Shown: positions 1-25,218, counted from the first letter of the stretch. The stretch: DNA of 29,934 nucleotides from a virus (IMGVR_UViG_2802429225_000009:1-29934); one strand, 5' to 3'. Numbers and translations: made by a program. Notes: a model not told the origin generated them from the sequence alone.

Positions 1-990
1 TTATGTGGATGAAATGTGGATGCCTCCTTTTAACGGATTAAGTGAAATTGCATCCTGGAGGAAATCAGGAGCGAGGTGCGCATAGGTCATAGTTTGCTGG
101 ATCGTGGCGTGCCCCATAATTCGCTGGAGCGTAAGTATATTTCCTCCATTAATCATAAAGTGAGCAGCAAAGGTATGGCGTAGAACATGTACAGCCTGTC
201 CTTTTGGTAGGTCTGGCTTAACACTGCGAAGCACCTTGCGATATTCCTCATAATTGACGTCAAATAAAAGGCCGGATTTCTTTGTTTTGATCTCACTAAC
301 AACTTCATCAGAGACAGGAATAATTCGAACTTTTCCGTTTTTAGTTTTGTTAAACGTCACGCGATTATTGATGATGTGTTCCGCGCGCAGATTTTTCGCT
401 TCTCCCCATCTCGCACCAGTACTGAGACAAAGTAGCGTAATCCGCCGGGCATCACCGCTTACTGCATCCAGTAATTTGGCGATTTCTTCCGTGGTGAGAT
501 ACGTCATTTCGGGTGATTTTCGTTTCAAAGAGGGGAGGGCGCGGAGCGGATTTTCTCCGTGAAATTCCCCGGCATTTGCCAGGAGTGTAAACATTCCTCC
601 GAGATCCGACTCATCACGCCGAACAGTAGACTCTTTTACTCCCAAAGATAAACGGGAGCTTCGATAAGCAGCCATGAAACGAGCATTAATCTGGCTAACC
701 CTTGGATCATTCATTTCTTTGATGATTTTTTTCAACCTGGTTAGAACGCCGTTAGCATATGGCTTATTGCGTCCACCCAATTCCCACCATAACGGAAGCA
801 GATCTGAGAGATGACGTTGCTCTGTTGGCTTTTCAAGCCATTCCTTATCGTGCATGTGGCTGAGAACATAACGCTCAAAGGCCACTGCATCTGCCTTTTT
901 CTTAAAAATCCGCTGAATCCGACGTCCACTTCGGCCACGCGGTCTAACATCCACTTTATACCGTCCACCATCGAGTGCTTTAATTGCCAT
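1..990 (-). CDS. int: Tyrosine recombinase, P2-type prophage integrase
   Basis: Minus-strand ORF whose translation from the second Met (MAIKALDGGRYKVDVRP...) matches the remembered N-terminus of P2 Int (MAIKKLDDGRYEVDIRP...). C-terminal HxxR...Y catalytic region (VLRHTFAAHF...MGHATIQQTMTYAHL). GGAGG lies 8 nt upstream of the ATG at 990. Track ORF 1..1023 starts 11 codons earlier without a good RBS. Stop codon is at 1-3. Confidence 0.9.
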   Translation of the reverse strand: MAIKALDGGRYKVDVRPRGRSGRRIQRIFKKKADAVAFERYVLSHMHDKEWLEKPTEQRHLSDLLPLWWELGGRNKPYANGVLTRLKKIIKEMNDPRVSQINARFMAAYRSSRLSLGVKESTVRRDESDLGGMFTLLANAGEFHGENPLRALPSLKRKSPEMTYLTTEEIAKLLDAVSGDARRITLLCLSTGARWGEAKNLRAEHIINNRVTFNKTKNGKVRIIPVSDEVVSEIKTKKSGLLFDVNYEEYRKVLRSVKPDLPKGQAVHVLRHTFAAHFMINGGNILTLQRIMGHATIQQTMTYAHLAPDFLQDAISLNPLKGGIHISST

Positions 991-1056
991 TGGCAAGCCC
1001 TCCGGTGAAACGAGGAAAGACATTTCCAGTTTGTAAAACGTAAGAATAATAAAGGG

Positions 1057-3744: not shown

Positions 3745-3944
3745 ACAAAAAGACCTGGTTTCGCGCATACATGTGGGCGCTGGTATGCGTCCTCGTCTCT
3801 CTCATTCTGTATGCAGGACTACTCCCCCGAATGATTTCATCAGACAGCTCCTTCCTGGTATTGCTGGGCATTTTCATTGCCATGCTGTACCCGGCAGGCG
3901 TTGTTCGCCTTTTCAGTAAGTACATCAAGGAAATCAAACAATGA
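3741..3944 (+). CDS. Small integral membrane protein (two predicted TM helices)
   Basis: 67 aa with two hydrophobic stretches (WALVCVLVSLILYAGLL; FLVLLGIFIAMLYPAGVV). Coupled by ATGA overlaps to both neighbours. Sits immediately upstream of the SPFH gene, the position an NfeD-type partner usually occupies. Confidence 0.55.
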   Translation: MNKKTWFRAYMWALVCVLVSLILYAGLLPRMISSDSSFLVLLGIFIAMLYPAGVVRLFSKYIKEIKQ

Positions 3945-4771
3945 AGAAATTCAAACCCTTTCAGATTCTCCCGCTTTTTGCCGCCATCCTGCTGGTTGGC
4001 TGCGATCGCGTTGAGCCAGGTAATGTGGGCATCAAAGTCAACAAGCTGGGCGACGACAAAGGCGTTGGCGAAGTGGTTGGCGTTGGCCGCTACTGGACTG
4101 GCTGGAATACCGAGGTTTACATCTTCCCGACCTTCAAACAAATGAAGACCTACGATGAGCCGTTCAGCTTCCAGATGAGTGACGGCACAACCATCGGCTA
4201 TCACATCGGTGTGGCCTACAAGGTTGATCCATCCAAAGTTACCACTGTGTTTCAGACCTACCGCAAAGGCGTGGATGACATTACCGACACCGACCTGCGC
4301 CAGAAGATCGCCGACGCACTCAACCGACTGGCCAGCAAAATGACCACCGATAAATTTATCGACGGTGGCAAGTCTGAACTGCTGGATTCAGCACTTAAAG
4401 ACATTCAGGCAGAAATGACACCTATCGGCATTCAGGTAATGAGCCTCTCTTATGTGGGTAAGCCGGAATACCCGCCAACCGTTATCGACAGCATTAATGC
4501 CAAAGTCACGGCAAACCAGAAAACTCTGCAACGCGAGCAGGAAGTTAAGCAACGCGAAGCAGAAGCCAACATGCTGCGCGCAGAAGCTGCCGGACAGGCT
4601 GATGCCATTCGAACAAAAGCCCAGGCTGAAGCCGACGCCATTCGTTTACGCGGTGAAGCTCTGCGCCAGAATCCCGGCGTTATGGAGCTGGAAGCGATTA
4701 ACAAATGGAACGGCACGCTACCGCAATACATGACCAGTAACACCGCTGTTCCGTTTGTTCCGGTGAAGTAA
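3941..4771 (+). CDS. SPFH/Band-7 (HflK/HflC-stomatin-like) lipoprotein
   Basis: 276 aa. N-terminal signal peptide with lipobox (AAILLVGC). Band-7 core followed by a C-terminal A/E/Q-rich coiled coil (QREQEVKQREAEANMLRAEAAGQADAIRTKAQAEADAIRLRGEA) typical of HflK/HflC-type proteins. Confidence 0.75.
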   Translation: MKKFKPFQILPLFAAILLVGCDRVEPGNVGIKVNKLGDDKGVGEVVGVGRYWTGWNTEVYIFPTFKQMKTYDEPFSFQMSDGTTIGYHIGVAYKVDPSKVTTVFQTYRKGVDDITDTDLRQKIADALNRLASKMTTDKFIDGGKSELLDSALKDIQAEMTPIGIQVMSLSYVGKPEYPPTVIDSINAKVTANQKTLQREQEVKQREAEANMLRAEAAGQADAIRTKAQAEADAIRLRGEALRQNPGVMELEAINKWNGTLPQYMTSNTAVPFVPVK

Positions 4772-4838
4772 TTCAACCCGGCCAGTGAAACCGCTGGCCG
4801 AAAATATAACGAATAAACAAAAAGCCAGAGGACAGAAC

Positions 4839-4985
4839 ATGCACAAAGCCTTTGAACGATGGATGCGCCAGCGTTACGGCAATCGCTATGACCTGACAAG
4901 GGATGTTGATGGCTACTACTGCCGCGAAATTGTGAAACGAATGTTTGAAGTGTGGTGTCACGCTCGCGGCCTGTACGCCGTGTAA
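4839..4985 (+). CDS. Hypothetical small protein
   Basis: Start re-set to ATG 4839 (MHKAFERWMRQRYGNRYDL...) with AGAGGA 7 nt upstream. The track start at 4785 is GTG inside a hairpin. 48 aa. Confidence 0.35.
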   Translation: MHKAFERWMRQRYGNRYDLTRDVDGYYCREIVKRMFEVWCHARGLYAV

Positions 4986-5019
4986 TCCGTGTCACTGTCA
5001 GAAGCTTAACCCATGTATA

Positions 5020-5146
5020 CACAAAAAAACCGCTTGCCATGCCGCAATCAGTCAGGTTACATTTCCGCTGCACCTCATAAAACGGGTGCCGGGTTTCGCA
5101 GCCTGCTGACAACCAAAGCGCACAACCGCGCCAGCGGTTTTTTTGT
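5020..5146. repeat. Perfect 15-bp inverted repeat pair flanking about 97 bp
   Basis: CACAAAAAAACCGCT at 5020-5034 and its exact reverse complement AGCGGTTTTTTTGTG at 5132-5146. The interior holds further short hairpins. No convincing ORF. Confidence 0.6.
5124..5143 (+). terminator. Candidate intrinsic terminator for the upstream early/moron operon
   Basis: ACCGC-GCCA-GCGGT hairpin (5-bp GC-rich stem, 4-nt loop) followed directly by TTTTTTT at 5137-5143. Stem is short, so confidence is modest. It coincides with the right arm of the 15-bp inverted repeat. Confidence 0.35.
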
Positions 5147-5323
5147 GCGTACTGTATTGCCACGTCTTTTTCGCACACGAATTATGGCGGGGCGTACGGG
5201 GCCGACTTCGGTCGGGCCGGGTTCTTTGGTTGCCGGTACTGCGAACCCCGTACGTCTCGCCACCCACAGTTTCGCAGCTCTGGATGGTGAGTTTTCAAAA
5301 CTTACAACCAAAGAGGCCACTCC

Positions 5324-5554
5324 ATGGCAAACCGCAAACAGCTCCGCGCTATCGCGGAGCGTCGTCACATCCAGACTGAAATCAACCGCAGACTTTCCCG
5401 CGCATTCCGCGTCGCTAAAATCATGCACATCAATATGCTGCATGAGCGTAGCTGCGAACTTTCAAACCTCTACTCATCCGCTGTTTTCAGTTATCTGGCG
5501 GATGATCTGCGCGAGCTTCAGCAGCTCATCCAGCAGCAAAACAAACTCCATTAA
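5324..5554 (+). CDS. Hypothetical protein
   Basis: 76-aa ORF with AAAGAGG 7 nt upstream. Predicted helical and basic. Lies upstream of A. Confidence 0.5.
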   Translation: MANRKQLRAIAERRHIQTEINRRLSRAFRVAKIMHINMLHERSCELSNLYSSAVFSYLADDLRELQQLIQQQNKLH

Positions 5555-5998: not shown

Positions 5999-8821
5999 AT
6001 GACGACAGAGTTCATCAGGGACTGGCAACAACCGCGCCACGCAGTAGGGCGTGAAGGAACGGGGATCCCCGCACCTGAATCCGCGCTTTCCTCCTGGCTG
6101 GATGCCTACCGGGCAGAGAACGAGCGCCGCCAGGAAATGGCTGATGCGGCGTTCTCCGCCACGCCGCTGGGCAACCTGATTAATAAAAGCCTGGACGCAC
6201 AGGAAAAACAGGACAAAACCATCACACTGGCAGGAGACGCCAGAAAACAGGCACGCGGCGCGGTGGATGAAGCCATGGCCTCGCTCCGCCTGCTGCCGTC
6301 CTATCTGCGCGATCCGCTTATTCGCCACCTCTCCTTCCTGCGCAAAAAACAGGAAGCTGATCGCCGGAAAGGCAAAAAGAGCTGGCAGGCTGAACGCTAC
6401 GCGCGCGGAACCCTGCGCAAAATATTCGAACGTCTGGATCGCACCGACCACCGCTGGCTGACACCGGGTTATCGCTCCCTTGCCGGACGCGAACACCTGG
6501 ATGATTTGCTTTACCTGCCGCAGCTCAACAAACACCAGATACAGACGCTGGCCGCCATGACGGCGGCGATGTTCAGCAGCACCTTCGAAAAACTCTGCGA
6601 TGGCTTTGGCGCGACCGATGGCGAGCTGACCATGGATGTAACCCTGAAGGCGTATCAGATGCTGGCCCGCATGGCGTTACACCTGCACGCCATGCCTCCA
6701 CATTATGACGCACTGACAACAGACAAAGACCGGAGGAACGAACCGGACACGGAGCTGCTGCCGGGCGCAATCCTTCGCCTGACCTGTGCAGAATGGTGGA
6801 AACGCAAACTGTGGCTGTTACGTTGCGAGTGGCGGGAAGAACAACTCCGCGCCGCCTGTCTGGTTTCCAGAAAAACATCTCCCTATCTGAGCCAGGACGC
6901 GTTAAGCGAGTTTCGCGCACAGCGCGAGAAAACACGCGATTTCCTGAAAAGTTTCATGCTGGAAAACGAAGACGGGTTCACGATTGATCTCGAGACAGTG
7001 TATTACGCGGGAGTAAGTAACCCGGTTCACCGTAAGGCAGAAATGATGGCCACCATGAAGGGGCTGGAGCTTCTGGCCGAAGCCCGTGGCGACAAAGCGG
7101 TGTTTCTGACTGTCACCTGCCCGTCAAAATACCACGCCACAACAGAGAACGGTCATCCGAATCCCAAATGGAACGGGGCCACCATGCGCGACTCCAGCGA
7201 TTACCTGGTTAACACGTTTTTTGCGGCGGTCCGCAAGAAACTGAACCGCGACGGCCTGCGCTGGTATGGCATCCGCACGGTGGAGCCTCACCATGACGGC
7301 ACCGTGCACTGGCATATGATGGTCTTTGCTCATCCGGAAGAAATCGACACCATTGTGTCCCACACCCGCGATATTGCCATTCAGGAAGATCGTCACGAGC
7401 TGGGTGATGATATTACCCCACGCTTTAAGGCGGAGCACGTCGACGGCTCAAAAGGCACACCGACCAGCTACATCGCCACCTACATCGGGAAAAACCTGGA
7501 CAGCCGTGCCGTGGATGGCATCGACCCGAAAACGGGCAAGCCACGCGTTGACCACGAAACAGGTAAATCAATGGCCGAGAGCGTGGAGCGCGCCATCGGC
7601 TGGGCGCGCCTTCACCGGGTCCGCCAGTTCCAGTTCTTTGGCATTCCCTCCCGTCAGGTGTGGCGTGAACTCCGCCGCCTTGCCAGCCAGATGGCACGCA
7701 ACCCGGAAGGCCCGCAACGGCTGAAGGATGACGCAATGGATGCGGTTCTTGCTGCCGCTGATGCCGGGTGTTTTGCCACCTACATTGAAAAACAGGGCGG
7801 CGTACTTGTTCCACGCAAAGACTACCTGATTCGCACCGCCTACGACCTCGCCGATGAGCTGAACGATTACGGCGAACAGAGTGTACAGATTTACGGGATC
7901 TGGTCGCCACTCATCGGGGAATCCTCCCGTGTGTGCACGCATCAGGATAACTGGAAGCTGGTAAGACGCAAACCGGAAGCGAAAGACAGCGCCCGCGAAA
8001 ATGGTTTTGACCTTCAGGGCGGCCCTGCCGCCCCTTGGACTCGTGGCAATAACTGTCCCCGTGTACAGGAAACGGACAACAACGGGACAGAACAGCCGGA
8101 AGAACGGCCAGCACCGTGGCCGCAGCTTCCTGACGGCGTTGAAGTAAATGAATGGATGCGCTCACTGAAACGGCACGAACGCCGGGCGCTGATGCGTTCG
8201 CTTCGTGACAAACAGGCAAAAAACAGCAGCGATGAAATGCAGAACTGGACACAGAGCCGCAAACAGCCACAGCCTTTGCCTGATAACCACGAGTTACTCG
8301 CTAAAGAATGGCGGGAGTCTGCTGAATCTCTCGGCCTGCATATCGGTGAACAGCAGATGCAGCACCTGTTACGGGGCGGCAGCCTGTACGTTGACGGCAG
8401 CATCATTGCACCGCAGGGATTTGAAATTGTACGCAAACCGGATACCCGCCCGGACAGCCGAATCACGCAGCTCTGGCAGCGCCTGAGCCGCAATCACGGC
8501 GTAAGCAGCACGGAGATCCGTCATAACCCGGTCGCCAGCTATCTGGAACAGCTGGGGGCATCAGACCCCGAAGCCGCCGCACGCCTGGCATCCACACTTC
8601 AGCAAGACCAGAACACCATGAAAACACCCGTTACCGTGCTTTCTGACATGCTGCGCGCCATCCGTGACGCAGAGCACGCACAGAGAATCAGTGAAACCAC
8701 TGAACGCGCCCGCCGCAAAGCAAACCTGCTGCGGGGTGGCCTGACCAGTGGAAACAAAAAACAGACAAAAACGGGATTTACAAATCCCGTAAATGAGCAA
8801 AAAACGCGCCGCGATATATGA
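5999..8821 (+). CDS. A: Rolling-circle replication initiator (HUH endonuclease), P2 gpA family
   Basis: 940-aa ORF. HUH-type motif (HHDGTVHWHMMVFAHPEE) and other blocks remembered from P2/186 A proteins. Position after the early genes matches P2. The C-terminal ~180 aa is longer than I recall for P2 A and overlaps the first palindromic site, so the true stop could be earlier if there is a sequencing frameshift. Confidence 0.85.
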   Translation: MTTEFIRDWQQPRHAVGREGTGIPAPESALSSWLDAYRAENERRQEMADAAFSATPLGNLINKSLDAQEKQDKTITLAGDARKQARGAVDEAMASLRLLPSYLRDPLIRHLSFLRKKQEADRRKGKKSWQAERYARGTLRKIFERLDRTDHRWLTPGYRSLAGREHLDDLLYLPQLNKHQIQTLAAMTAAMFSSTFEKLCDGFGATDGELTMDVTLKAYQMLARMALHLHAMPPHYDALTTDKDRRNEPDTELLPGAILRLTCAEWWKRKLWLLRCEWREEQLRAACLVSRKTSPYLSQDALSEFRAQREKTRDFLKSFMLENEDGFTIDLETVYYAGVSNPVHRKAEMMATMKGLELLAEARGDKAVFLTVTCPSKYHATTENGHPNPKWNGATMRDSSDYLVNTFFAAVRKKLNRDGLRWYGIRTVEPHHDGTVHWHMMVFAHPEEIDTIVSHTRDIAIQEDRHELGDDITPRFKAEHVDGSKGTPTSYIATYIGKNLDSRAVDGIDPKTGKPRVDHETGKSMAESVERAIGWARLHRVRQFQFFGIPSRQVWRELRRLASQMARNPEGPQRLKDDAMDAVLAAADAGCFATYIEKQGGVLVPRKDYLIRTAYDLADELNDYGEQSVQIYGIWSPLIGESSRVCTHQDNWKLVRRKPEAKDSARENGFDLQGGPAAPWTRGNNCPRVQETDNNGTEQPEERPAPWPQLPDGVEVNEWMRSLKRHERRALMRSLRDKQAKNSSDEMQNWTQSRKQPQPLPDNHELLAKEWRESAESLGLHIGEQQMQHLLRGGSLYVDGSIIAPQGFEIVRKPDTRPDSRITQLWQRLSRNHGVSSTEIRHNPVASYLEQLGASDPEAAARLASTLQQDQNTMKTPVTVLSDMLRAIRDAEHAQRISETTERARRKANLLRGGLTSGNKKQTKTGFTNPVNEQKTRRDI

Positions 8822-8868
8822 AGCGCGCACAAAACAGGCGAAAGCGGGATTTCAGAATCCCGTAAACG
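8771..8868. promoter_or_regulatory. Twin palindromic sites upstream of parM (candidate parC-like centromere/operator)
   Basis: CGGGATTT-ACA-AATCCCG at 8772-8789 (perfect 8-bp arms) and GGGATTTCAGAATCCC at 8846-8861 (7-bp arms). Both are followed by GTAAA, lie about 75 bp apart, and the second is 37 bp upstream of the parM start. Candidate -10 TAATTA at 8871-8876. Confidence 0.4.
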
Positions 8869-8897
8869 GTTAATTAACCAACATAAGGAAAATCGAC

Positions 8898-9857
8898 ATG
8901 AAAATTTGTATCGACGACGGCTCCACCAACATCAAGCTGGCATGGACTGAGAACGGCGAACGCCGCAACGCCATCAGCCCGAACAGCTTCAAGTCGGAAT
9001 GGTCTGCGCCGTTCGGTGGCACGCAGCCCGCAAACTACATGCTTGATGGCGTGCGCTATGGTTTTGATCCGGTCAGCGATCGCTTTGTCCAGACGACCGA
9101 CACGCAATACCAGTACAGCGATGTGAATGTCATTGCCATTCATCACGCGCTGGTCAAATCAGGTATCACACCACAGGAAGTGGATGTGGTTGTCACCCTG
9201 CCACTGAGCGAGTATTTCGACACAAACGCCCAGCCGGATATGACCAACATCAACCGCAAAAAAGCGAACGTTATGCGCCCGGTGGAGTATCAGAACAGTG
9301 AGGCATTCACTATCCGCAACGTACGGGTTATGCCTGAATCCATTCCGGCTGGCTTTAAGGCACTGGCTGACATGAGTCAGTTTGAATCCCTGCTGATTGT
9401 GGATTTGGGCGGAACCACGCTGGATGTGGCAAAGGTTCAGGGACAACTGGCAGGTATCAGCCAGGTGTTTTGCGATCCACACGTAGGCGTTTCTCTGATG
9501 GCCGATGCCGTGCTGTCGGTGATGGCCACCAACGGTATGCGTACCAGTCACCACATCGCTAATACCATTATCGAACATCGCCACGATGAAGCCTGGCTGC
9601 GCCAGCACATCCACAATAACGCACATTACGCCAGCCTGATGGCAGTTATTCGTGAAAAGGAGGAAACACTGAAACAACGCGTGATCCGCGCGCTGGCGGG
9701 TTTTTCGGGTTACGGGCGGGTGATGGTTGTAGGTGGAGGAGCGGAGATTGTGGCACCCGCTATCCGCGAAGCCTGCGGAGTTAATGCGACTTTCATCGCG
9801 GACGGGGTGCCACAGTTTGCTCTGGTTAATGGGCTGTACGCAATGGACAAGGAGTAA
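8898..9857 (+). CDS. parM: ParM/StbA actin-like segregation ATPase
   Basis: 319 aa. N-terminus MKICIDDGSTNIKLAW...ISPNSFKSEW...QYSDVNVIAIHHALVKSGI tracks remembered R1 ParM (MLVFIDDGSTNIKLQW...ISPNSFKREW...QYSDVNVVAVHHALLTSGL). Actin-fold phosphate motifs (DDGST; DLGGTTLD). AAGGA RBS. Confidence 0.85.
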   Translation: MKICIDDGSTNIKLAWTENGERRNAISPNSFKSEWSAPFGGTQPANYMLDGVRYGFDPVSDRFVQTTDTQYQYSDVNVIAIHHALVKSGITPQEVDVVVTLPLSEYFDTNAQPDMTNINRKKANVMRPVEYQNSEAFTIRNVRVMPESIPAGFKALADMSQFESLLIVDLGGTTLDVAKVQGQLAGISQVFCDPHVGVSLMADAVLSVMATNGMRTSHHIANTIIEHRHDEAWLRQHIHNNAHYASLMAVIREKEETLKQRVIRALAGFSGYGRVMVVGGGAEIVAPAIREACGVNATFIADGVPQFALVNGLYAMDKE

Positions 9858-9860
9858 ATC

Positions 9861-10176
9861 AATGACGACACCAACCAGACGGATAAGTTTCTATCTGAAG
9901 CCCGCCGTCGTCAAGAGCGAACGGGAGGCGTGCAGTTACCTCGACAGCCTGCCAGCCTCCGAACGCAGCCGCGCACAACGCGCGGCTTTTCTGGCTGGAC
10001 TGGCTCTTATAAAACGCACCCCCGCGTTGGCGTATTCGCTGGCAGAATGGTCAGAAGACGAAATACGGATGCCACCGCTACCAGTACAGCCTGAAAAACC
10101 TGCGCAACCAGCAGCAGACAGCGCCTCCCATATGCAGCAGGTGAAAAAGAATATTCAGGCGTTTTTCCCGAAGTGA
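9861..10176 (+). CDS. parR: ParR/StbB ribbon-helix-helix centromere-binding adaptor
   Basis: Start re-set to ATG 9861 (MTTPTRRISFYLKPAVV...YLDSLPASERSRAQRAAFLAGLALI), which resembles remembered R1 ParR (…RRTIAFKLNPDV…TLDSIPQGERSRLNRAALTAGLALY). AAGGAG RBS. Directly downstream of parM. Confidence 0.8.
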
Positions 10177-10190
10177 AAACAGGAGTAACT

Positions 10191-10478
10191 ATGTCCACCA
10201 TTACCAAAGAATGGTTACAACGTAAAATCACAGAGTTTAAATCGTGGCGCGAAGACATCCCGTTCGGTCTTGATGAAGACGATCACAATATGTTAATCGC
10301 ACTGGAAATCGCACTTGCATCACTGGAAGCAGAGCCAGTGGCATGGATGCACGCAAATAATCCTATTGGAATACCGGCGATAACAAGAAGTAAAGATGTT
10401 GCAGACAGCTGGCGCTCTAAGGGATGGAATGTATTGCCTCTTTATTCACTGACCCGCTCCATCAATTTATGCCATTAA
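10191..10478 (+). CDS. Hypothetical protein, first gene of the AT-rich cassette
   Basis: Start re-set to ATG 10191 (MSTITKEWLQRKI...) with AGGAG 7 nt upstream. 95 aa. AT-richness rises sharply from about 10180. Confidence 0.45.
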   Translation: MSTITKEWLQRKITEFKSWREDIPFGLDEDDHNMLIALEIALASLEAEPVAWMHANNPIGIPAITRSKDVADSWRSKGWNVLPLYSLTRSINLCH

Positions 10479-10489
10479 TGGAAGTAATC

Positions 10490-10849
10490 ATGATGAAAGA
10501 TAATTCCGGAAGCCAGCGTGCATCAGTTGCAGTTATGGTAATGATTAAATTTGTGAAACAGTACACCGGAAAGCCAATCTCGCTCCGGCAATTAAGCAAA
10601 GAAACCGTTTCACTGTCATATCTGGAGCAAATATTCAGATATTTACGGGAAAGTAGCCTGGTAAAAGCCACACGCGGCCCGGGTGGTGGATATATCCCAA
10701 CAAAAGAAAATTACAGTGTTGGTGATATTGTCCGGGCAATGAAATGTTCCGGATTATATACACAGCACGTTATTCTGGCTGCACTGGATAATATTTCTTT
10801 AACCAGCCTGCAGGAAGACACAAATTATCAGTTGTCTGCCATTGAATAA
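10490..10849 (+). CDS. Rrf2-family (IscR/NsrR-like) winged-helix regulator, short form
   Basis: Start re-set to ATG 10490. 119 aa. The family signature SLSYLEQIFRYLRESSLVKATRGPGGGYIPTKENYSVGDIVRAM aligns with remembered IscR ([47 protein letters not shown]). The downstream segment has one Cys rather than the three-Cys cluster-ligand set. Confidence 0.7.
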   Translation: MMKDNSGSQRASVAVMVMIKFVKQYTGKPISLRQLSKETVSLSYLEQIFRYLRESSLVKATRGPGGGYIPTKENYSVGDIVRAMKCSGLYTQHVILAALDNISLTSLQEDTNYQLSAIE

Positions 10850-10853
10850 GAAA

Positions 10854-10894
10854 ACCCGGAACGGGTGCGCAAATTCTTTGTGCGCCCGTTCCGG
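10854..10894. terminator. Bidirectional hairpin terminator between the convergent Rrf2-like and ogr-like genes
   Basis: 11 perfect base pairs (CCCGGAACGGG / CCCGTTCCGGG), extendable to about 17 with wobble pairs, around a 7-nt loop (AATTCTT). A-run upstream and T-rich sequence downstream. Sits between the two stop codons. Confidence 0.6.
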
Positions 10895-10917
10895 GTTGGA
10901 CAAGCGAAGCGCGTCAG

Positions 10918-17504: not shown

Positions 17505-17978
17505 ATGACGCAACTCGCCAGCCTGACGGCATTCATTGAAAACAATCTGCCGGCACGCGCACGCATTCCGTTCACCAGTGACATGGACGACATCACGCTC
17601 GTTCCGTTTACGAAGTCGCTGGGGCACGGGCAGTTATGTACGCAGGTCCGAAAATATACGGCTTTTCTGCGATGGGACGCATGGCCCTATCGTCAGCTCA
17701 ATCCGGATTTGGTGTTTTCTCTGGTTGAAGCCTGGCTGGCAGACAACGGCGGCGACCTGCGCCAGCGCCTGGCACCGGATGCGCCAGCCGTTGACGTCGA
17801 AGTGGATGATGAAAATGAAGTGGCATGGCTGGAAATCAGTCTGCCGCTGGTTGATCCCATCACCCTGGTTGAGGACGAAAACGGCCCCATCCCCAGAGGC
17901 GGGAAACGTTACCAGCTGGAAAAGCCTGAAATCTGGGTGGCTCAGGCGCATCAGCTTCACTGTCAGGTGATGCCATGA
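17505..17978 (+). CDS. Putative tail completion protein (gpR-like)
   Basis: 157 aa, similar in size to P2 R, directly after L. Identity is by position and size only. Confidence 0.45.
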   Translation: MTQLASLTAFIENNLPARARIPFTSDMDDITLVPFTKSLGHGQLCTQVRKYTAFLRWDAWPYRQLNPDLVFSLVEAWLADNGGDLRQRLAPDAPAVDVEVDDENEVAWLEISLPLVDPITLVEDENGPIPRGGKRYQLEKPEIWVAQAHQLHCQVMP

Positions 17979-18688
17979 CGCGCCCAGTGATTAACGAGTC
18001 ACAACTCCGGCAGGTTCGTCGCGCCATCAGAGAGGCAGAACTTCCGCCGGCAAAGGCCAGAAAGCTGCTGGTTCGCATTGCGAAATACGGCCTGATACCG
18101 GCTGCACGACGCAATGTGAAAGCACAGCGAACACCGGAGGGGGCAGCCTGGGCACCACGAAAAAGACCGGATAAAGCCAGCGGCAGGTATAAAAACAAAA
18201 TGCTGCTGGGACTGCCGAAACTGCTGGCCATCAGGGTTGACGGCAGCGGGAAAAGTGTCCGCCTTTTCTTCAAAAAAGGGGCTTACAACACCGGCTCTCA
18301 TGGTGGGGCGGTCGCGTGGGTGCAACAGCACGGCGCAACCATCAAAGGCCGCGCCACAAAGCGCCGGGACAGCGAAGCCATGCGCACCCGTCCCGCCACA
18401 CGACGGCAGGCAGAACGCCTTCTTTCTCTGGGCTTTCGCGCCCCCGTCGGCGCAGTCAGCAAAAAGACCGGGCGCAGGGGGCGCAGAAAACCTTCCCTGA
18501 AATGGATTATGGAAAACATGAGTATGGCGCAGGCCGGACTGGTGATCAGCATTCTGAAAGGCGAGCAGAAAAAACGTGTATGGGAAATCAAAATCCCCTC
18601 CCGCGCATTTCTGGGAGCCAGCGATGCTGAATTTGCCCGCATTCTGGAAGCGCAGCTGCGTAGCCTGCATTACGGCGGCACGAGATAA
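17975..18688 (+). CDS. Putative virion morphogenesis / tail completion protein (gpS-like) with a basic C-terminal extension
   Basis: 237 aa, start overlapping the previous stop. Contains a WAPRKRP-type segment I associate with the gpS family. The Arg/Lys-rich C-terminal half is longer than P2 S (~150 aa). Confidence 0.5.
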   Translation: MTRPVINESQLRQVRRAIREAELPPAKARKLLVRIAKYGLIPAARRNVKAQRTPEGAAWAPRKRPDKASGRYKNKMLLGLPKLLAIRVDGSGKSVRLFFKKGAYNTGSHGGAVAWVQQHGATIKGRATKRRDSEAMRTRPATRRQAERLLSLGFRAPVGAVSKKTGRRGRRKPSLKWIMENMSMAQAGLVISILKGEQKKRVWEIKIPSRAFLGASDAEFARILEAQLRSLHYGGTR

Positions 18689-18707
18689 CAAAATCAGGAG
18701 ACAAACC

Positions 18708-19856
18708 ATGACATGGCCATCTGTCACGATTGAACAGTACAACACATTCAGCAGTTCACCGGACGGCGTGGAAAATACGCTGCTGTTTGTGGGCAATGCA
18801 CAAAACAACAAAGGTGAGGTTCTGCCGGTTAATGCCAACAGCGATCTGGATGAGCTACTGGGAAAGAACGCCAGCCCGCTGAAGAACTTCCTTCAGTCTG
18901 CACTGACCAATGCCGGACAGAATGCCTTTTTCTATGTTGCCGTTCTGCCGGAAGCCGGCAAAGGCAAAGAAGCAACGCCAGCCTGCCAGGTATGGCAGAA
19001 CGCCATACTGGCGGCTCAGGAAACTGTTTCAGTTGAAGGCGTGGTGATCACCGAGCCGGTCAGCACGAAGGATGACATCAACGCCATACAGGCGTTACGT
19101 CAGACCATCATCAATAAATATCAGCGCCGCATCTGGTTCATCCTGACCATCGCCGCCAACGACAACAGTAAAACCTGGGCGGAATACGTTGCCGAACTGA
19201 CCGCACTACAGAAAGGCATTGCAGCCCCGCAGGTCATGCTGGTTCCGGAGATTTTTGGATTTGAACCGGGCGTTCTTGCCGGTCGCCTGTGTAACAGCGC
19301 CGTCACCATTGCTGACAGTCCGGCACGTGTGGCAACCGGGCCCCTGTCCGCACTGAAAACCACAGAACGCCCGAAAGACAGCACAGGGCAGGCAATTGAT
19401 CTCGACACTCTGCAGGCGCTGGCAACCGCCCGCTACAGCGTGCCCATGTGGTATGCCGACTATGACGGCCTTTACTGGGCTGACGGTGTAACACTTGAGG
19501 TGGAAGGCGGGGACTACAACGTCATTGAGCATGTCCGCATTGCTGATAAGGTGGCGCGCCGCGTGCGGCTGATGGCCATCCCCAAGATTGCCGACCGCTC
19601 GCTGAACAGCACGCCGGGCAGCATTGCCGCACATGAAACGCTGTTTGCCCGCCCACTGCGTGCCATGGCGAAATCCATGCAAATTAACGGCATCACGTTT
19701 CCGGGCGAAGTGAAATCGCCCCGGAAAGGCGACGTGGTTATCACCTGGCAGGACGAAAAGACGGTCAGCATCAGCATTGTCGTCCGCCCTTACGCCTGCC
19801 CTAAAACCATCAAAGTGGGCATTCAGCTGGATAAATCTCTGGAGGAAAACGCATGA
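18708..19856 (+). CDS. Putative contractile tail sheath protein (not obviously P2 FI-like)
   Basis: Start re-set to ATG 18708 (MTWPSVTIEQYNTF...). 382 aa, followed directly by a ~150-aa gene and then chaperone and tape-measure genes, the canonical sheath-tube-chaperone-TMP order. Function inferred from synteny and size. Confidence 0.5.
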   Translation: MTWPSVTIEQYNTFSSSPDGVENTLLFVGNAQNNKGEVLPVNANSDLDELLGKNASPLKNFLQSALTNAGQNAFFYVAVLPEAGKGKEATPACQVWQNAILAAQETVSVEGVVITEPVSTKDDINAIQALRQTIINKYQRRIWFILTIAANDNSKTWAEYVAELTALQKGIAAPQVMLVPEIFGFEPGVLAGRLCNSAVTIADSPARVATGPLSALKTTERPKDSTGQAIDLDTLQALATARYSVPMWYADYDGLYWADGVTLEVEGGDYNVIEHVRIADKVARRVRLMAIPKIADRSLNSTPGSIAAHETLFARPLRAMAKSMQINGITFPGEVKSPRKGDVVITWQDEKTVSISIVVRPYACPKTIKVGIQLDKSLEENA

Positions 19857-20308
19857 CGACCCGCATTAACGGCATGGCGTTTGACACTTTTATCGGTGGA
19901 ACGGATATCCATGTGAAAAGCATCTCACTGGACATCAGCGATGAAAGCGCCGTTGCCAAAACCCGTGGCATCCCTGACGGCAAACTGCGCGGCCCTGTCA
20001 GTGCCGAAGGTGAAATCGAAATGAGTACCCGCAGCTTTAACCAGCTCGGGGAAGTGGCTGCTCAGGAGGGATCGTGGCGTGACCTGCCGCCAATGGATTT
20101 TGTGTTTTACGCCAACACGGGAACCGAAGAAATCCGCGTTGAAGCCTTCGGTTGTGAGCTGATGCTTTCCGGCCTGTTAAGCATTGACACCGAGAGCGCA
20201 GATCTGACCACGCACAAAATCAAGTACGTGGTGGCAAGCCCTGACTTTGTGCGTATCAACGGCGTGCCCGTTCTCTCAGAGAACGACGTGCGCGGACTGA
20301 TGGGGTGA
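19853..20308 (+). CDS. Putative tail tube protein
   Basis: 151 aa, ATGA-coupled to the putative sheath gene. Function inferred from synteny and size. Confidence 0.45.
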   Translation: MTTRINGMAFDTFIGGTDIHVKSISLDISDESAVAKTRGIPDGKLRGPVSAEGEIEMSTRSFNQLGEVAAQEGSWRDLPPMDFVFYANTGTEEIRVEAFGCELMLSGLLSIDTESADLTTHKIKYVVASPDFVRINGVPVLSENDVRGLMG

Positions 20309-20311
20309 ACC

Positions 20312-20608
20312 ATGCAGGAGCATGAGCGCACCATTATCACTCTGGGTATTCTGGGCGGAATCGCTGCCGCAAGTCGGGTGCTGGCTGGCGCAGAGCCGAT
20401 TACGTTGCGGTTGTTTGTGGGCCGAACCCTGCTGGGGAGCGCGCTGGGTGTTTCTGCCGCTGCCCTGCTGGTTCGCTACCCGAACCTTGACCCACTGGCC
20501 ATTGCCGGCGCAGGCACCGCAATGGGCGTTGCCGGTTACCAGATTGTTGAAATCTTCCTGCGTCATATGCGCCGGAAGCTGGGCGAGAAAGAGAACAAAG
20601 AGGAGTAA
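20312..20608 (+). CDS. Putative holin (small membrane protein with charged C-terminus)
   Basis: 98 aa. Two or three hydrophobic helices (IITLGILGGIAAASRVLAG; LLGSALGVSAAALLV; AIAGAGTAMGVAGYQIV) followed by a charged tail (RRKLGEKENKEE). Located just upstream of the peptidase gene. Confidence 0.5.
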   Translation: MQEHERTIITLGILGGIAAASRVLAGAEPITLRLFVGRTLLGSALGVSAAALLVRYPNLDPLAIAGAGTAMGVAGYQIVEIFLRHMRRKLGEKENKEE

Positions 20609-20613
20609 CAGCA

Positions 20614-20715
20614 ATGCTGTCCCGCAGGGAACAAAAAGCTGCCGCCATTGCCTGGAAAATTATCCGGGCACTGTGGTACTGGCTGCGCAAACCTCAGCAA
20701 CCTCATAAGGAGTAA
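20614..20715 (+). CDS. Possible 33-aa amphipathic peptide between the holin and endolysin genes
   Basis: ATG at 20614 with AGGAG 8 nt upstream. Translation MLSRREQKAAAIAWKIIRALWYWLRKPQQPHKE. Below the track cutoff. Confidence 0.25.
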   Translation: MLSRREQKAAAIAWKIIRALWYWLRKPQQPHKE

Positions 20716-20717
20716 AA

Positions 20718-21059
20718 ATGAAACTCTCCGATAAGCAACAACAATTTACCGTCATGATCGGAAAACTCATCCAGTTTGCCCATCAGCGCGGTTATGGCCT
20801 GACGTTCGGTGAGGCGTACCGCACGCCAGAACAGGCAAAACTCAACGCACAAAAGGGATCCGGCATTGCCAACAGCCTGCACTGCCAGCGGCTGGCCGTG
20901 GATTTTAATCTGTTTATTAACGGTGAATATCAGACCCGCACAGAGGCCTACCGTGAGCTGGGCGAGTACTGGGAATCCCTTGGTGGCGCATGGGGCGGTC
21001 GTTTTAAAAACCGACCGGATGGCAATCATTTCAGCCTTGAGCACGACGGCGTGCGCTGA
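20718..21059 (+). CDS. Peptidase M15-type endolysin (zinc D,D- or L,D-peptidase fold)
   Basis: 113 aa. Zinc-ligand pattern typical of small M15/VanY-like phage lysins: H...D in SLHCQRLAVDFNLF and a C-terminal H-x-H (NHFSLEH). Confidence 0.7.
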   Translation: MKLSDKQQQFTVMIGKLIQFAHQRGYGLTFGEAYRTPEQAKLNAQKGSGIANSLHCQRLAVDFNLFINGEYQTRTEAYRELGEYWESLGGAWGGRFKNRPDGNHFSLEHDGVR

Positions 21060-21065
21060 TTTTAC

Positions 21066-21115
21066 GCTTAATAAGCCTTCCTGCAGGCTTATTAAGCCCT
21101 CTTATTCTTGACTTT
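21066..21115 (+). terminator. Hairpin with T-rich tail inside the late operon (candidate attenuator)
   Basis: Perfect 12-bp stem GCTTAATAAGCC (21066-21077) / GGCTTATTAAGC (21086-21097) with an 8-nt loop, followed by CCTCTTATTCTTGACTTT. The T-tract is interrupted, so termination is probably partial. Confidence 0.4.
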
Positions 21116-21123
21116 AAAAGGAA

Positions 21124-21417
21124 ATGATGATGAACGATAAAAACACACAGACTACCGCAGAGAACACCATCACTTTACAGGTCGGCGAGCATGAACTGAC
21201 GTTTATCCCGACCGTAAAAGCCTACAACGACCTGCAGAACGACTTCATGCCGGATAACAAAATCGCGCCGCTGAAAAACTACCTGCGCCGTATCGTGATT
21301 AAAGAGCACCGCGATCTGCTGAACCAGTTGCTGGAAAAACCAGGAATGCCGGCCAGCCTGGCAACAGCCGTGAATAACGAGTTTGTGCCGGAAGTGGAAA
21401 TCACCGTAAAAAAATAA
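21124..21417 (+). CDS. Tail assembly chaperone (gpE/gpG-like), zero-frame product
   Basis: 97-aa acidic protein immediately upstream of the tape-measure gene. Ends in a poly-A slippery heptamer. Confidence 0.6.
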   Translation: MMMNDKNTQTTAENTITLQVGEHELTFIPTVKAYNDLQNDFMPDNKIAPLKNYLRRIVIKEHRDLLNQLLEKPGMPASLATAVNNEFVPEVEITVKK

Positions 21418-21605
21418 AAAGCCATCTGGGGGCCATTGATCGCAATGACCTGACCCGGATGCTGATTCTGCGCCGCCACTGGCTGCCCGGCGAGGATGAC
21501 TCGCCGCAGTCACTGGCTGCCGCCGTCTGGCTGGATAACCACTACTGGGAAAATATGAGCATCGCCGTCAATAACGGCATTATCCGTGCTTTTAAGGGAT
21601 CGTAA
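21124..21605 (+). CDS. Tail assembly chaperone, predicted -1 frameshift fusion product
   Basis: Slippery heptamer A_AAA_AAA at 21408-21414, just before the zero-frame stop (21415-21417). The -1 frame is open from there to a stop at 21603-21605 that overlaps the tape-measure ATG (extension ...IKSHLGAIDRNDLTRMLILRRHWLPGEDD...AFKGS). Confidence 0.45.
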
Positions 21606-23701
21606 TGTCACAACAGCGCCTTGAATTACTTCTTGAACTGACAGATCGCCTGACAAGGCCGTTGCGTGCAGCCGGGCGACAGGTTCAGGGATTTGCTGCA
21701 ACAAGTCGGGGAGCCTTTCGGGACATTGCTACCGGAGGCGCTGCGCTCTGGGGAGTGGGTGCAGCCATTCAGGGGGCACTGATGCCAGCCATTGAAATGG
21801 ACAGGGCGCTCGGTGAGGTGAAATCACTGGGCGTCGCAGAGTCCGGATTGCGTAAACTCAGCCGCGCCGCCGTTGATTTCACTATGGAATACGGCGGGGC
21901 TGCGCAGGATTTTGTGCGTGCTTCTTACGACATCCAGTCAGCCATTGCCGGGTTAACTGACGATGAGCTGTCCCGCTTCACCACCGCATCAGCAACGGTG
22001 GCAGCAGCAACCAAATCCAGCAGCCAGACCATTACCGCCTACATGGGCACCATGTACGGCATCTTTAAAGACCAGGCTGATGCCATGGGAAAAAGTAAAT
22101 GGGTGGAGCAGGTCGCCGGGCAAACCGCCACCGCCGTGCAAATGTTTAAAACAACCGGCGATAACATGTCAGCGGCGTTCACCACGCTGGGGGCTAGTGC
22201 AAAAGCGGCCGGTATTGATGCGGCTGAACAGTTCGCCGTGCTGGGACAACTACAGGCCACCATGAGTGGCAGCGAGGCCGGGACAAAATACAAGGCATTT
22301 CTTGCCGCAGTAGGTAGCGCCCAGAAAAAGCTGGGGCTTAATTTCGTGAATAAAGACGGCACCATGAAAAGTGTTGTCGAGATCATGAAACTTATCAGGG
22401 GTAAATTTGGTGATCTGTCAAAAGTGGCTGATTCCGATTTGCTAAAAAGCGCCTTTGGCTCCGATGAAGCTGTGGCCATGATTAAATTACTCAATGCGGA
22501 CATTGGCGGACTTGAAAAGAATATCGCCACGCTGGGCAATATCAAAGGTATGGATAAGGCTGTCGAAATGGCGCAGGCCATGGCTGATCCATGGGAACAG
22601 GCCGCTGCAATTATTAACGGCATTCGCATCGAAATTGGCACGCAGTTGTTGCCTGTTCTGTACCCGTTTATCCAGAAAAGCAACGAAGGCGGTAAATCCT
22701 TTGTTGCCTGGTTACGCCTGTATCCAAACATCACTCGCGCAATCGGCTTATTAAGCGCGGCACTTATTGGTGTTGCGGCGGTTGGCGCAACGGTCAATGT
22801 CGTAATGGGGGTTGCGAAATTTATCTGGGTGGGATTACGCATGGTCTGGATGGCCGTCATCGCCCCACTGAAATTAATCGTTTTTCTGTATCGCACAATG
22901 AGAGTGGTTATGCTTGCGTTCTGTGCTGCCGCCCGCATGGTAAGAGCAATATATCTGGCAATAAACATCGCCATGGGAGTGATGAATATTCGCGCCAGAG
23001 CACAACTGCTATTGATGGGCCTACAACGTGCCGGAATGCTCCTGCAGGCAGCAGCATTATCAGCCGTTTCTGTTGCCATGGGGATTTATTCCGCAGTCAC
23101 CAGCGGAGCCGCAATTGCAACACAGTTACTTTTCAGCCCCATCACATTAATCATCCTGGCACTGGCTGCGCTGGGTGTGGGCATTTATTTCCTGATTACC
23201 CGCTGGGATGAAATCAAAGCTGCACTGATGGATACCGCTGCATTTCAGTGGGTTGCCGGCATCATTAACAGCATGGGGGCGTGGTTCGGCAATGCATGGA
23301 GTGCAATCAGGGATGGCTGGAATGCACTGGTTAACTATTTTTCCACCCATTCACCACTGGATGCCCTGAAGGATCTCGCGGGCGGCATACTGAATATTTT
23401 CAGCAACCTCTGGGAACTGGTGAAACAGTCCTTCAGTGATTCATGGGGCTGGATTGTGGACAAACTCAACATGATCCCCGGCGTTAACATCGGCACATCA
23501 GAAAGCACAGGAAGTGGCGAAGGCTCCGTATTAACCGGCGGCAAAGCCATCAGTGCGGGACCGGGCGGCATTGCGGCAGAGATGCAGAACAACAGCGAAA
23601 ACCAGACCACCATCGACAACTCCCGTCGTGTGGTCAACGTCAATGTGCAGGATCCATCCCCTGCCCGTCTTAACGAGTGGATGGAGCTGCATGCATACTG
23701 A
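21605..23701 (+). CDS. Tail tape measure protein
   Basis: 698 aa. Alpha-helical, Ala/Gly-rich, with a central run of hydrophobic segments. Follows the chaperone frameshift site. Confidence 0.85.
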   Translation: MSQQRLELLLELTDRLTRPLRAAGRQVQGFAATSRGAFRDIATGGAALWGVGAAIQGALMPAIEMDRALGEVKSLGVAESGLRKLSRAAVDFTMEYGGAAQDFVRASYDIQSAIAGLTDDELSRFTTASATVAAATKSSSQTITAYMGTMYGIFKDQADAMGKSKWVEQVAGQTATAVQMFKTTGDNMSAAFTTLGASAKAAGIDAAEQFAVLGQLQATMSGSEAGTKYKAFLAAVGSAQKKLGLNFVNKDGTMKSVVEIMKLIRGKFGDLSKVADSDLLKSAFGSDEAVAMIKLLNADIGGLEKNIATLGNIKGMDKAVEMAQAMADPWEQAAAIINGIRIEIGTQLLPVLYPFIQKSNEGGKSFVAWLRLYPNITRAIGLLSAALIGVAAVGATVNVVMGVAKFIWVGLRMVWMAVIAPLKLIVFLYRTMRVVMLAFCAAARMVRAIYLAINIAMGVMNIRARAQLLLMGLQRAGMLLQAAALSAVSVAMGIYSAVTSGAAIATQLLFSPITLIILALAALGVGIYFLITRWDEIKAALMDTAAFQWVAGIINSMGAWFGNAWSAIRDGWNALVNYFSTHSPLDALKDLAGGILNIFSNLWELVKQSFSDSWGWIVDKLNMIPGVNIGTSESTGSGEGSVLTGGKAISAGPGGIAAEMQNNSENQTTIDNSRRVVNVNVQDPSPARLNEWMELHAY

Positions 23702-24041
23702 TAAACCGCTTTACATTGATTTGCTCATCACCGGCCGCAATCTCACGCTGAACAGCGCCAGTGAGCCGGTGTTATGCAACAACAGGGAAAGTATTGCCCA
23801 GGACTGCCAGCACGCCATCATTGAGAGCGGACTGGCAACGCGCCTGCTGGCTGAAAAAAGCCCGACGCTTCGTGCCGACATCATGATGCAGATGACACTG
23901 CTGATTGAAGATGATGAGCGCATCACACCTGGCACGGTCAGTGTGACAGAAGAAACCCTGCTTTCTGGTCGCCTGCTGATTAGCGCCCACACCGAAGATT
24001 TTTTTGAACCCCTGACTTTTACGGTATCTCTTGATGATTAA
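23691..24041 (+). CDS. Putative small baseplate protein (gpW/gp25-like by position)
   Basis: 116 aa starting at ATG 23691, overlapping the tape-measure stop. Directly upstream of the J-like gene, as W precedes J in P2. No sequence-level confirmation. Confidence 0.4.
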   Translation: MHTDKPLYIDLLITGRNLTLNSASEPVLCNNRESIAQDCQHAIIESGLATRLLAEKSPTLRADIMMQMTLLIEDDERITPGTVSVTEETLLSGRLLISAHTEDFFEPLTFTVSLDD

Positions 24042-25218
24042 CGGCAAACCTACCGCAGATTACGAGCGCATTCTGGCTGATAATGGCATGCCGGTAACCG
24101 AAGAACAGGCACGTGCTGAATTTGAAGCCATTGTCAAAGACGAAGGGCTTATCACCAACACATCCCGCATGTCGCCGTTCTGGCGACTGATTACAGCTAT
24201 CACCACAAAACCCGTAATGTGGCTGAAAGATGCGCTGGTTAATGTGGTGATGAAAAACCTGTTTCTGGCTGATGCCAGCGGTGTATTCGTTGATGTTTTT
24301 GCCTGGGCGGTAAACCTGCAACGCAAGGCCGCCACGCACGCAGCCGGCGTGATTCGTTTCACCAAAAACGACATTGATCACGCAGTTACCGTGCCGGCCG
24401 GTACGCAGATTCAGACAGAACGCATTAACGGCGTGATTTATACGCTGACCGTTGTCAGGGATACCGTTATTCCGGCAGGAACACTCAGCATGAACATCGA
24501 TGTTTCTGCGGAACAGGCCGGAGCCGGCTTTAACCTTGCGCCGGGATATTACCGCATCCTTCCGGTGGCGATTGATGGTATTGCCGGTGTTGAGAACGAT
24601 GAAAACTGGCTGACCACACCGGGTGCCAACGAAGAAAGCGATGACGAGCTGCGTGATCGTGTTCGCAATCAGTTTAATCTTGCCGGCGCTTATCACACAG
24701 ATGCTGTTTACCGGGGATTAATTGCCGGCGTTGCCGGCATCAGTGCCGACCGCATCTATTTTCTGCATGACGCACCACGCGGCCCCGGCACAGCAAATGC
24801 TTACATTCTGCTGGATACTGGCATCGCATCCGAACCGTTCGTTGATGCAGTAAACGCATTCATTAACGATGAAGGTCATCACGGACACGGTGATGATCTG
24901 CGCTGTTTTTCCATGCCTGAAACACGCCACACCCTGACCGTGACACTCTGGTTATATGCAACACTGAACCTCAGCGATGAGGAAATTCAGACGTTATTGC
25001 GCAATGTGGAAAATCTGGTTCGCTGTGCATTTCGAGAAAACAGCGATTATGACGTTCAGAAAACATGGCCGTATAGCCGTTTCAGCATGTCCAGACTGGG
25101 CGAAGAGATCCACCAGGTATTTCCACAGGTGGAGTCGGTTACATTTTCTCTTCCGGATATTCTCAGTGATCTGGCTGTTCCTCGTCTGGAATCCCTTACT
25201 GTGGAGGTGAGCGCGTGA
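24034..25218 (+). CDS. Baseplate J-like protein
   Basis: Start re-set to ATG 24034 (the track begins on TTG at 24031). 394 aa, upstream of an I-like gene and the fibre gene, matching the J-I-H order. Confidence 0.7.
   Translation: MINGKPTADYERILADNGMPVTEEQARAEFEAIVKDEGLITNTSRMSPFWRLITAITTKPVMWLKDALVNVVMKNLFLADASGVFVDVFAWAVNLQRKAATHAAGVIRFTKNDIDHAVTVPAGTQIQTERINGVIYTLTVVRDTVIPAGTLSMNIDVSAEQAGAGFNLAPGYYRILPVAIDGIAGVENDENWLTTPGANEESDDELRDRVRNQFNLAGAYHTDAVYRGLIAGVAGISADRIYFLHDAPRGPGTANAYILLDTGIASEPFVDAVNAFINDEGHHGHGDDLRCFSMPETRHTLTVTLWLYATLNLSDEEIQTLLRNVENLVRCAFRENSDYDVQKTWPYSRFSMSRLGEEIHQVFPQVESVTFSLPDILSDLAVPRLESLTVEVSA

Follow-up and report, generated by a model that had tools for sequence, protein, structure and literature searches.

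The parMR cassette at positions 8898-10176 of the window (the whole 29,934-nucleotide stretch of viral DNA analyzed here) most plausibly encodes a functional ParMR motor that works on phage genomes in their transient circular form, either during gpA-driven replication or while lysogeny is being established. We give this reading a probability of roughly 50%. Four observations favor it: parMR keeps a fixed position after the replication gene, it appears to have been captured more than once, its sequence is strongly constrained, and the phages that carry it are overwhelmingly integrated. With comparable confidence, we regard parMR as a vertically inherited core part of the replication operon in one large lineage of P2-like phages, which comprises P88 (Xuanwuvirus) in Escherichia and related phages of Hafnia, Plesiomonas, Serratia and Enterobacter.

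The window is a P2-family prophage that is 99.9% identical to the chromosome of E. coli A36 over the 2 kb tested. Its assignment to Xuanwuvirus (P88-like phages) is based on P2-type gpA, Q, P, O, N, M, L, ogr and int/C/cox genes, together with high nucleotide identity to P88. The integrase gene (1-1023, minus strand) is followed by genes for a C-type repressor and cox, and then by a series of small early genes, one of which encodes an SPFH/Band 7 domain protein (3941-4771; Pfam, 7.6e-31). Next comes a 550-nt stretch without an annotated gene (4772-5323) that contains two promoter-like sites (5034-5063 and 5157-5185) and a terminator-like hairpin on the plus strand (5124-5139). Downstream of this gap lie an ORF of the "derepression" family (5324-5554), a 121-aa ORF, gpA and parMR, and this run of genes may constitute a separate transcription unit. 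The gpA gene (5999-8821, plus strand; "replication endonuclease" in RefSeq) encodes a 940-aa rolling-circle replication endonuclease whose residues 179-503 match Pfam Phage_GPA at 2.6e-131. Residues 504-940 match no domain, and this long C-terminal region terminates in the first of two palindromic boxes described below.

A 76-nt spacer separates the end of gpA from parM (8898-9857), which is followed by parR (9862-10176; its ATG lies inside an ORF that opens with the GTG at 9733). Both genes are on the plus strand, in the same orientation as gpA. The initial annotation had described a complete parM/parR locus, close to the R1 type, directly after gene A in an integrase-carrying P2-family phage; the ORF boundaries agree exactly with the span it gave, and the placement is borne out by the positions of gpA and the integrase gene. 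Beyond parR, the plus strand encodes a hypothetical protein of 95 aa (10191-10478; PHROG 660/60, no assigned function) and then a regulator of the Rrf2 family (10490-10849). Both genes are variable cargo of a hotspot between gpA and gpQ, a region that differs among related phages, and they lie outside the partition cassette. In the Serratia and Enterobacter relatives, the same hotspot holds HicAB and a KAP NTPase. An inverted repeat with 21-nt arms (10853-10897), located between the Rrf2 gene on the plus strand and ogr on the minus strand, forms a strong hairpin and is probably a bidirectional terminator that ends the gpA-parMR-cargo transcription unit. On the opposite strand beyond the hairpin are ogr, portal gene Q, terminase gene P and then P2-type head genes. 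Joined to these head genes is a tail module (17505-25218) that is of HP1 type, not P2 type, with DUF2586 (18576-19856), HP1_Orf24 (19853-20308), DUF2590 and baseplate J. The tails of the related phage PhiSM have been described as long and non-contractile-looking (PMC6456863). No LexA box was found near the operon.

ParM (319 aa; PHROG 691, "partition protein") is an actin-fold segregation ATPase. It matches the Pfam families StbA_N (PF06406, 3.8e-82) and ParM C-terminal domain (PF21523, 1.1e-68), and its residues 2-316 align with the sequence of the R1 ParM crystal structure (1mwk) with an E value of 5.5e-92, at approximately 50% identity over 315 residues as read by eye from the alignment. 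These profile matches confirm the earlier proposal of a ParM-type actin. In R1 ParM, nucleotide binding and hydrolysis involve DDGSTN, the glutamate of MPESIPAG, the aspartate of DLGGTT, and GGGAE. A residue-by-residue alignment to R1 ParM finds the motifs DDGSTNIK, MPESIPAG, DLGGTTLD and GGGAE intact in the window, and the nucleotide-binding columns are invariant in phage ParM relatives of 53-93% identity. Among 73 nucleotide alleles, parM has a dN/dS ratio of about 0.05 with a median dS of 0.08, and is thus under strong purifying selection. The ORF is intact at 319 aa in 88 of 88 sampled loci (the window, deposited phages and 80 IMG/VR contigs), a sample biased toward intact parM because the IMG/VR loci were the best-scoring matches.

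ParR (104 aa) matches PF10784 (Plasmid_stab_B) at 1.9e-24. As a single sequence, it gives a weak match to pB171 ParR (0.009), and a profile built from twelve phage and plasmid ParRs matches pB171 ParR (2jd3) over its full length at 2.9e-16. In known ParR proteins, a DNA-binding ribbon-helix-helix domain is joined through a flexible linker to a tail that binds ParM. An AlphaFold model made with 24 homologues (mean pLDDT 65.8) places helices at residues 20-29, 32-52 and 54-61, disorder at 62-86, and a C-terminal helix at 87-101. At the N-terminus, the predicted layout therefore has a ribbon-helix-helix region (about residues 6-61); a variable linker rich in proline (62-86) leads from it to a helix (87-101) that ends in the conserved NIxAxFP tail. 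The model agrees with the known plan, with the N-terminal strand expected to form only in a dimer.

Sequence variation in ParR follows the same division. Residues R6, F10, L12 and P14 are invariant, as are N97 and F102 in the tail. The 88-locus sample contains 49 distinct ParR proteins, which fall into two main types over the conserved residues 1-65, are hypervariable at residues 66-90 and share an invariant NIxAxFP tail that putatively binds ParM; a large protein database holds dozens of ParR clusters at 90% identity. From this pattern, selection appears to act on DNA binding and on the capture of ParM, leaving the intervening spacer free to vary. The rarer type is the one found in the window (PASERSRAQRAAF, with the tail KKNIQAFFPK). 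E. coli-type ParRs are 101-107 aa long and lack approximately 25 residues that the ParRs of plasmids and of Hafnia and Serratia phages retain after the ribbon-helix-helix. As separate observations, ParR evolves far faster than ParM (window 9862-10176; loci L019-L101), and a recombination break between phage lineages falls inside parR, where matches end near window positions 10015-10060.

These data bear on the idea that the cassette is a decaying, plasmid-derived passenger with no present role, or that ParR is retained merely as a local transcription regulator. P2 and most of its relatives lack the cassette, truncated ParM clusters occur in the protein database (P0006, P0010 and P0017), and one prophage record carries a frameshifted parM, all of which would fit decay. 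The dN/dS ratio of parM is not that of a decaying gene, however, and the ORFs are intact throughout the sample of 88, even if that sample favors intact copies. The invariance of the ATPase motifs and of the putative ParM-binding tail, the occurrence of the cassette in phages isolated as viable virions, and a second, independent capture described below likewise oppose this explanation, which we consider the least probable of all.

Near the operon, a single repeated element was found, a direct repeat of 39 nt whose copies lie at 8755-8793, within the last gpA codons, and at 8828-8866, in the spacer between gpA and parM (both on the plus strand). Each copy contains the 18-bp palindrome CGGGATTTnnnAATCCCG: box 1 (CGGGATTTACAAATCCCG) is at 8772-8789 and box 2 (CGGGATTTCAGAATCCCG) at 8845-8862, 73 bp apart. 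On the basis of their sequence and position, we propose the two boxes as a candidate parC and ParR operator. Relative to the parM start codon, they lie at -126 and -53 in almost every one of 86 related loci, with at most about two substitutions. In a Plesiomonas phage, two GGG..CCC boxes are 72 bp apart as measured, and in a Hafnia phage two such boxes are about 73 bp apart as read by eye; the ParMs of both are 61-62% identical to that of the window, and in both the second box lies approximately 54-59 nt from the parM ATG. The Hafnia phage has an extra ORF between gpA and parM, yet the boxes remain beside parM, which indicates that they are tied to the cassette and not to gpA. The upstream regions of the Serratia and Enterobacter relatives have a different architecture with large inverted repeats, and the two-box model therefore does not extend to them. 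Within E. coli, no covariation was found between the N-terminal type of ParR and the sequence of the boxes, as both types share the same boxes; at this depth, covariation thus does not link the boxes to ParR. The one IncI-type plasmid whose parM upstream region was examined has 400 nt of AT-rich sequence with several iterons and no motif in common with the phage boxes. Given two palindromes in place of a multi-iteron plasmid array, the phage element departs from the usual form of parC.

Between box 2 and parM, per-column variability across 55 distinct upstream sequences reveals a nearly invariant TTAATTAA element (8870-8877, plus strand), followed by an AAGGA ribosome-binding site (8885-8889, plus strand). 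The sequence TTAATCAA is present also in two other loci, L006 and L013. The TTAATTAA element may be a weak -10 region, and so part of a promoter belonging to parMR itself. A consensus promoter scan of the gpA-parM spacer found none, and no plus-strand terminator was found between gpA and parM.

The cassette is widespread in E. coli. Of 5426 complete genomes, 1303 (24%) carry parM, at 95-99% nucleotide identity in almost all cases, and the carriers include O157:H7 and ExPEC strains. The gene is also present in fourteen deposited phage genomes, including P88, PhiSM, 520873, 503458 and vB_EcoM-569R5. Every annotated one of these already labels it as a partition gene or ParM, the cassette is named in RefSeq, and PHROGs families exist for both proteins. 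The initial annotation held that P2-type phages carry no partition system and presented the locus as an anomaly. The first statement is correct for P2 itself and fails for the family, and while parMR is indeed present in the window, it is a conserved and annotated feature of a large P2-like lineage, and in that sense not unusual. A scan of genome contigs with the single ParM protein retrieved only three near-identical loci, as the patterns were too specific. A contig labeled Vagococcus sp. (NZ_JBQPOM010000071.1) holds a prophage whose ParM is 97% identical to the E. coli type; this label probably reflects contamination or mislabeling.

Phage-type ParM is rare on plasmids, being found in only six of 72,556 PLSDB records. 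Five of these are records of at least 228 kb in which the cassette lies beside a gpA gene, and the sixth is the 34.4-kb record of a whole P88-like phage. No plasmid ParM is 60-95% identical to the phage type, and the true plasmid ParMs, which number in the thousands, reach no more than 53% identity to it.

More divergent homologues place parMR consistently in P2-like phages. ParM relatives of 53-62% identity, from Hafnia, Plesiomonas, Serratia and Enterobacter, are all in P2-like prophages, where parMR sits after the replication gene and before ogr/Q; relatives at 48-53% identity are found in ICE or plasmid contexts. The synteny of parMR with the replication gene is retained in five divergent gpA-type lineages. 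In a neighbor-joining tree of ParM, the relatives from P2-like phages join the E. coli clade and are separate from the sequences of plasmids, ICEs and R1. In a metagenomic P2-like phage (L102, 3638-8300), gpA is replaced by a Toprim primase, and the parMR at the usual site is of plasmid origin, its ParM nesting among ParMs of conjugative plasmids. By this placement, P2-like phages appear to have captured parMR at least twice at the same position, and the primase-type phage would appear to represent a second, independent capture.

Adjacent to this fixed site is a hotspot rich in anti-phage cargo, and ParR alleles diversify quickly, as genetic conflict might produce. One could therefore imagine that the prophage ParR and ParM serve as a competition device, disturbing the partition of parMR plasmids or excluding superinfecting related phages. 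PADLOC defense-system models gave no match to the locus or to the hotspot cargo, however, and parMR is conserved while the adjoining cargo turns over. Plasmid ParMs reach 53% identity to the phage type at most, with no intermediate class, and no motif is common to the phage boxes and the one plasmid centromere examined. Moreover, the pairing of both N-terminal ParR types with the same boxes argues against a specificity race at the DNA level. Incompatibility with parMR plasmids, which had been offered at the outset as a possible function, is accordingly very unlikely, as is the competition explanation in general.

A partition locus could instead maintain the phage as a plasmid, and the initial annotation had suggested a phage-plasmid lifestyle. 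To look for circular forms, we built an attP junction from a single circular record (the int end, the record origin and the methyltransferase gene) and searched for it in all complete E. coli genomes. None of the 443 genomes that carry the same int and methyltransferase ends contains an intact junction; among the matches listed, the alignment always breaks at position 743 and none covers 80% of the junction. All 443 genomes carry the phage integrated. Likewise, the complete E. coli genomes contain 1443 copies of parM, of which 1441 are chromosomal. Lysogens of PhiSM, whose ParM is 99.1% identical to that of the window, are integrated at pdxB in K-12 (PMC6456863). The window contains no plasmid-type replicon, and the annotated early region shows no replication gene other than gpA. 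The chromosomal location of the copies, the lack of an intact attP and the lack of a plasmid replicon together disfavor stable plasmid lysogeny. Whereas a phage-plasmid is extrachromosomal in its lysogens, these phages are found in the chromosome, and plasmid lysogeny does not seem to be their usual state, with the caveat that assemblies can miss transient or low-abundance circles.

A weaker form of this idea is a dual lifestyle, in which the cassette would sustain a low-copy plasmid prophage whenever integration is impossible (with attB missing, the site occupied or the host new), so that the phage alternates between integrated and episomal states. Pfeifer et al. (2021), whose putative phage-plasmids include P88, and Rousset et al. 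(2022), who suggest an episomal state and refer to "around a fourth of P2-like phages", have already proposed it. The most direct evidence is pZ1323PEC0009-2 (NZ_CP148288.1, 1-34461), the circular 34.4-kb "plasmid" mentioned above, which comprises an entire P88-like phage; besides the integrase and parMR, it encodes a hok/gef toxin and a com/methyltransferase pair. Its gene table lacks several structural genes, which are possibly pseudogenes. In addition, a 32-kb Plesiomonas contig is essentially one phage genome, the conserved AT-rich element upstream of parM could be an autoregulated promoter, and P2-like plasmid prophages do exist (Arsenophonus pArsFIN13 and, as cited in the literature, Burkholderia KS14). 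A phage-sized parMR phage accounts for just one of the 72,556 PLSDB records, however, and the plasmid records also include pENTAS02, a P2-like phage that has an integrase but lacks par genes. A circular record is therefore not evidence of par-dependent maintenance, and we rejected the notion that P2-like "plasmid" records are specific to parMR carriers. Several other phage-sized plasmid records also carry gpA. Records 520873 and 503458, considered as extrachromosomal contigs, were likewise rejected, as they are linear prophage cut-outs with host flanks and many frameshifts. The chromosomal copies and the attP result weigh against a dual lifestyle as they do against stable plasmid lysogeny, and gpA is in the lytic operon; a true P2-like phage-plasmid has RepA and a ParA-like ATPase and no integrase. 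On balance, we consider a dual lifestyle unlikely, although it is a better prospect than competition or passenger status. In a separate observation, 9,111-bp plasmids of K. pneumoniae encode a gpA-type replication endonuclease 51% identical to the core of the window gpA, which suggests that gpA-like rolling-circle initiators can drive small plasmids.

A motor acting on transient circles accommodates both the integrated state and the position of parMR. P2-family phages replicate to, and package from, monomeric circles. Under this hypothesis, ParR dimers would bind both 18-bp palindromes ahead of parM, the C-terminal helix of ParR would capture the ends of ParM filaments, and ATP-driven polymerization of ParM would push pairs of circular phage genomes apart. 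The substrate would be the extrachromosomal circle that exists once the phage has infected or excised, at the stage at which gpA produces monomeric circles. A likely benefit would be that genomes are spread or segregated for efficient replication and packaging, or that copies reach both daughter cells before integration. Long-term carriage would depend on Int-mediated integration and not on a plasmid state. Positioning or segregation of excised or infecting circles fits the place of parMR behind the replication gene, and it has a precedent in the AlpAC system of prophage CGP3. Three observations count against the motor: the candidate centromere has only two sites, as opposed to the multi-iteron parC of plasmids; E. 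coli-type ParR is shorter than plasmid ParRs by the segment noted above; and the conserved TTAAT element leaves room for a separate promoter and for expression in lysogens. Because P2 and most P2-like phages thrive without the cassette, any benefit must be conditional.

More generally, and more tentatively, small integrating temperate phages of Gram-negative bacteria may use a captured plasmid actin as a viral cytoskeleton, which, with a minimal two-palindrome centromere, would move gpA-made monomeric circles in lytic growth or the establishment of lysogeny, and which would have been acquired at least twice at the same site. We judge this broader proposal to be somewhat more doubtful than the motor itself. 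If it is true, a prophage family present in 24% of complete E. coli genomes becomes a tractable model for actin-driven positioning of phage genomes. If parMR positions or segregates transient circles, actin-based handling of viral genomes extends from CGP3, the one studied case, to a model Gram-negative host, and a minimal pair of ParR and centromere is defined as well. If a facultative plasmid state is instead correct, the boundary between integrative prophages and phage-plasmids blurs. Sequence analysis by itself only narrows the options for the role of parMR.

The locus itself is already known: it is annotated and very common in P88-like phages, and the episomal idea is in print. The report on PhiSM counts the partition gene as fitness cargo. 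Our literature search found no functional study of P88 ParM, Peduoviridae ParM or Xuanwuvirus. New here are the two-palindrome candidate centromere, kept in position in Hafnia and Plesiomonas phages; the short ParR with its hypervariable linker and invariant tail; the second capture; and the result for the attP junction.

Among known systems, R1 ParMRC and pB171 par2 have the same order of parM followed by parR. All nucleotide-binding motifs of R1 ParM are shared, and the R1 and pB171 ParRs have the same layout of ribbon-helix-helix, linker and C-terminal tail with an invariant N and F. Unlike these plasmid systems, the phage cassette resides on an integrating phage, and its 76-nt upstream region with two palindromes contrasts with a long array of direct iterons around the promoter. 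The E. coli phage-type ParR, at 101-107 aa, is missing the segment after the ribbon-helix-helix, and the phage ParM forms its own clade by neighbor joining.

The closest relatives of the cassette are in P88, PhiSM, 520873, vB_EcoM-569R5 and PhiR44_2, which have it at the same position with 94-97% nucleotide identity and ParMs that are 94-99% identical. The window differs from other P88-like phages in its rarer ParR type, its cargo (the 95-aa ORF and the Rrf2 gene) and its HP1-type tail module. The P2-like plasmid prophages pArsFIN13 and KS14 share with the window a P2-type gpA, virion genes and plasmid-style maintenance genes. However, pArsFIN13 encodes a RepA initiator together with a ParA-like AAA ATPase and lacks an integrase; in the window, an integrase is present, a plasmid replicon is absent and the partition system is of the actin type.

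The nearest functional parallel is AlpC/AlpA of the Corynebacterium glutamicum prophage CGP3, which binds circular phage DNA, is induced early and is required for efficient replication (PMC4446434). Like parMR, AlpAC comprises an actin-like ATPase and a co-transcribed DNA-binding adaptor in an integrated prophage, with the adaptor site upstream of the operon (PMC4446434). AlpC differs in being a distant actin-like protein outside the ParM/StbA family, and in belonging to a Gram-positive host. The function of AlpAC was established experimentally, whereas that of parMR in the window is inferred.
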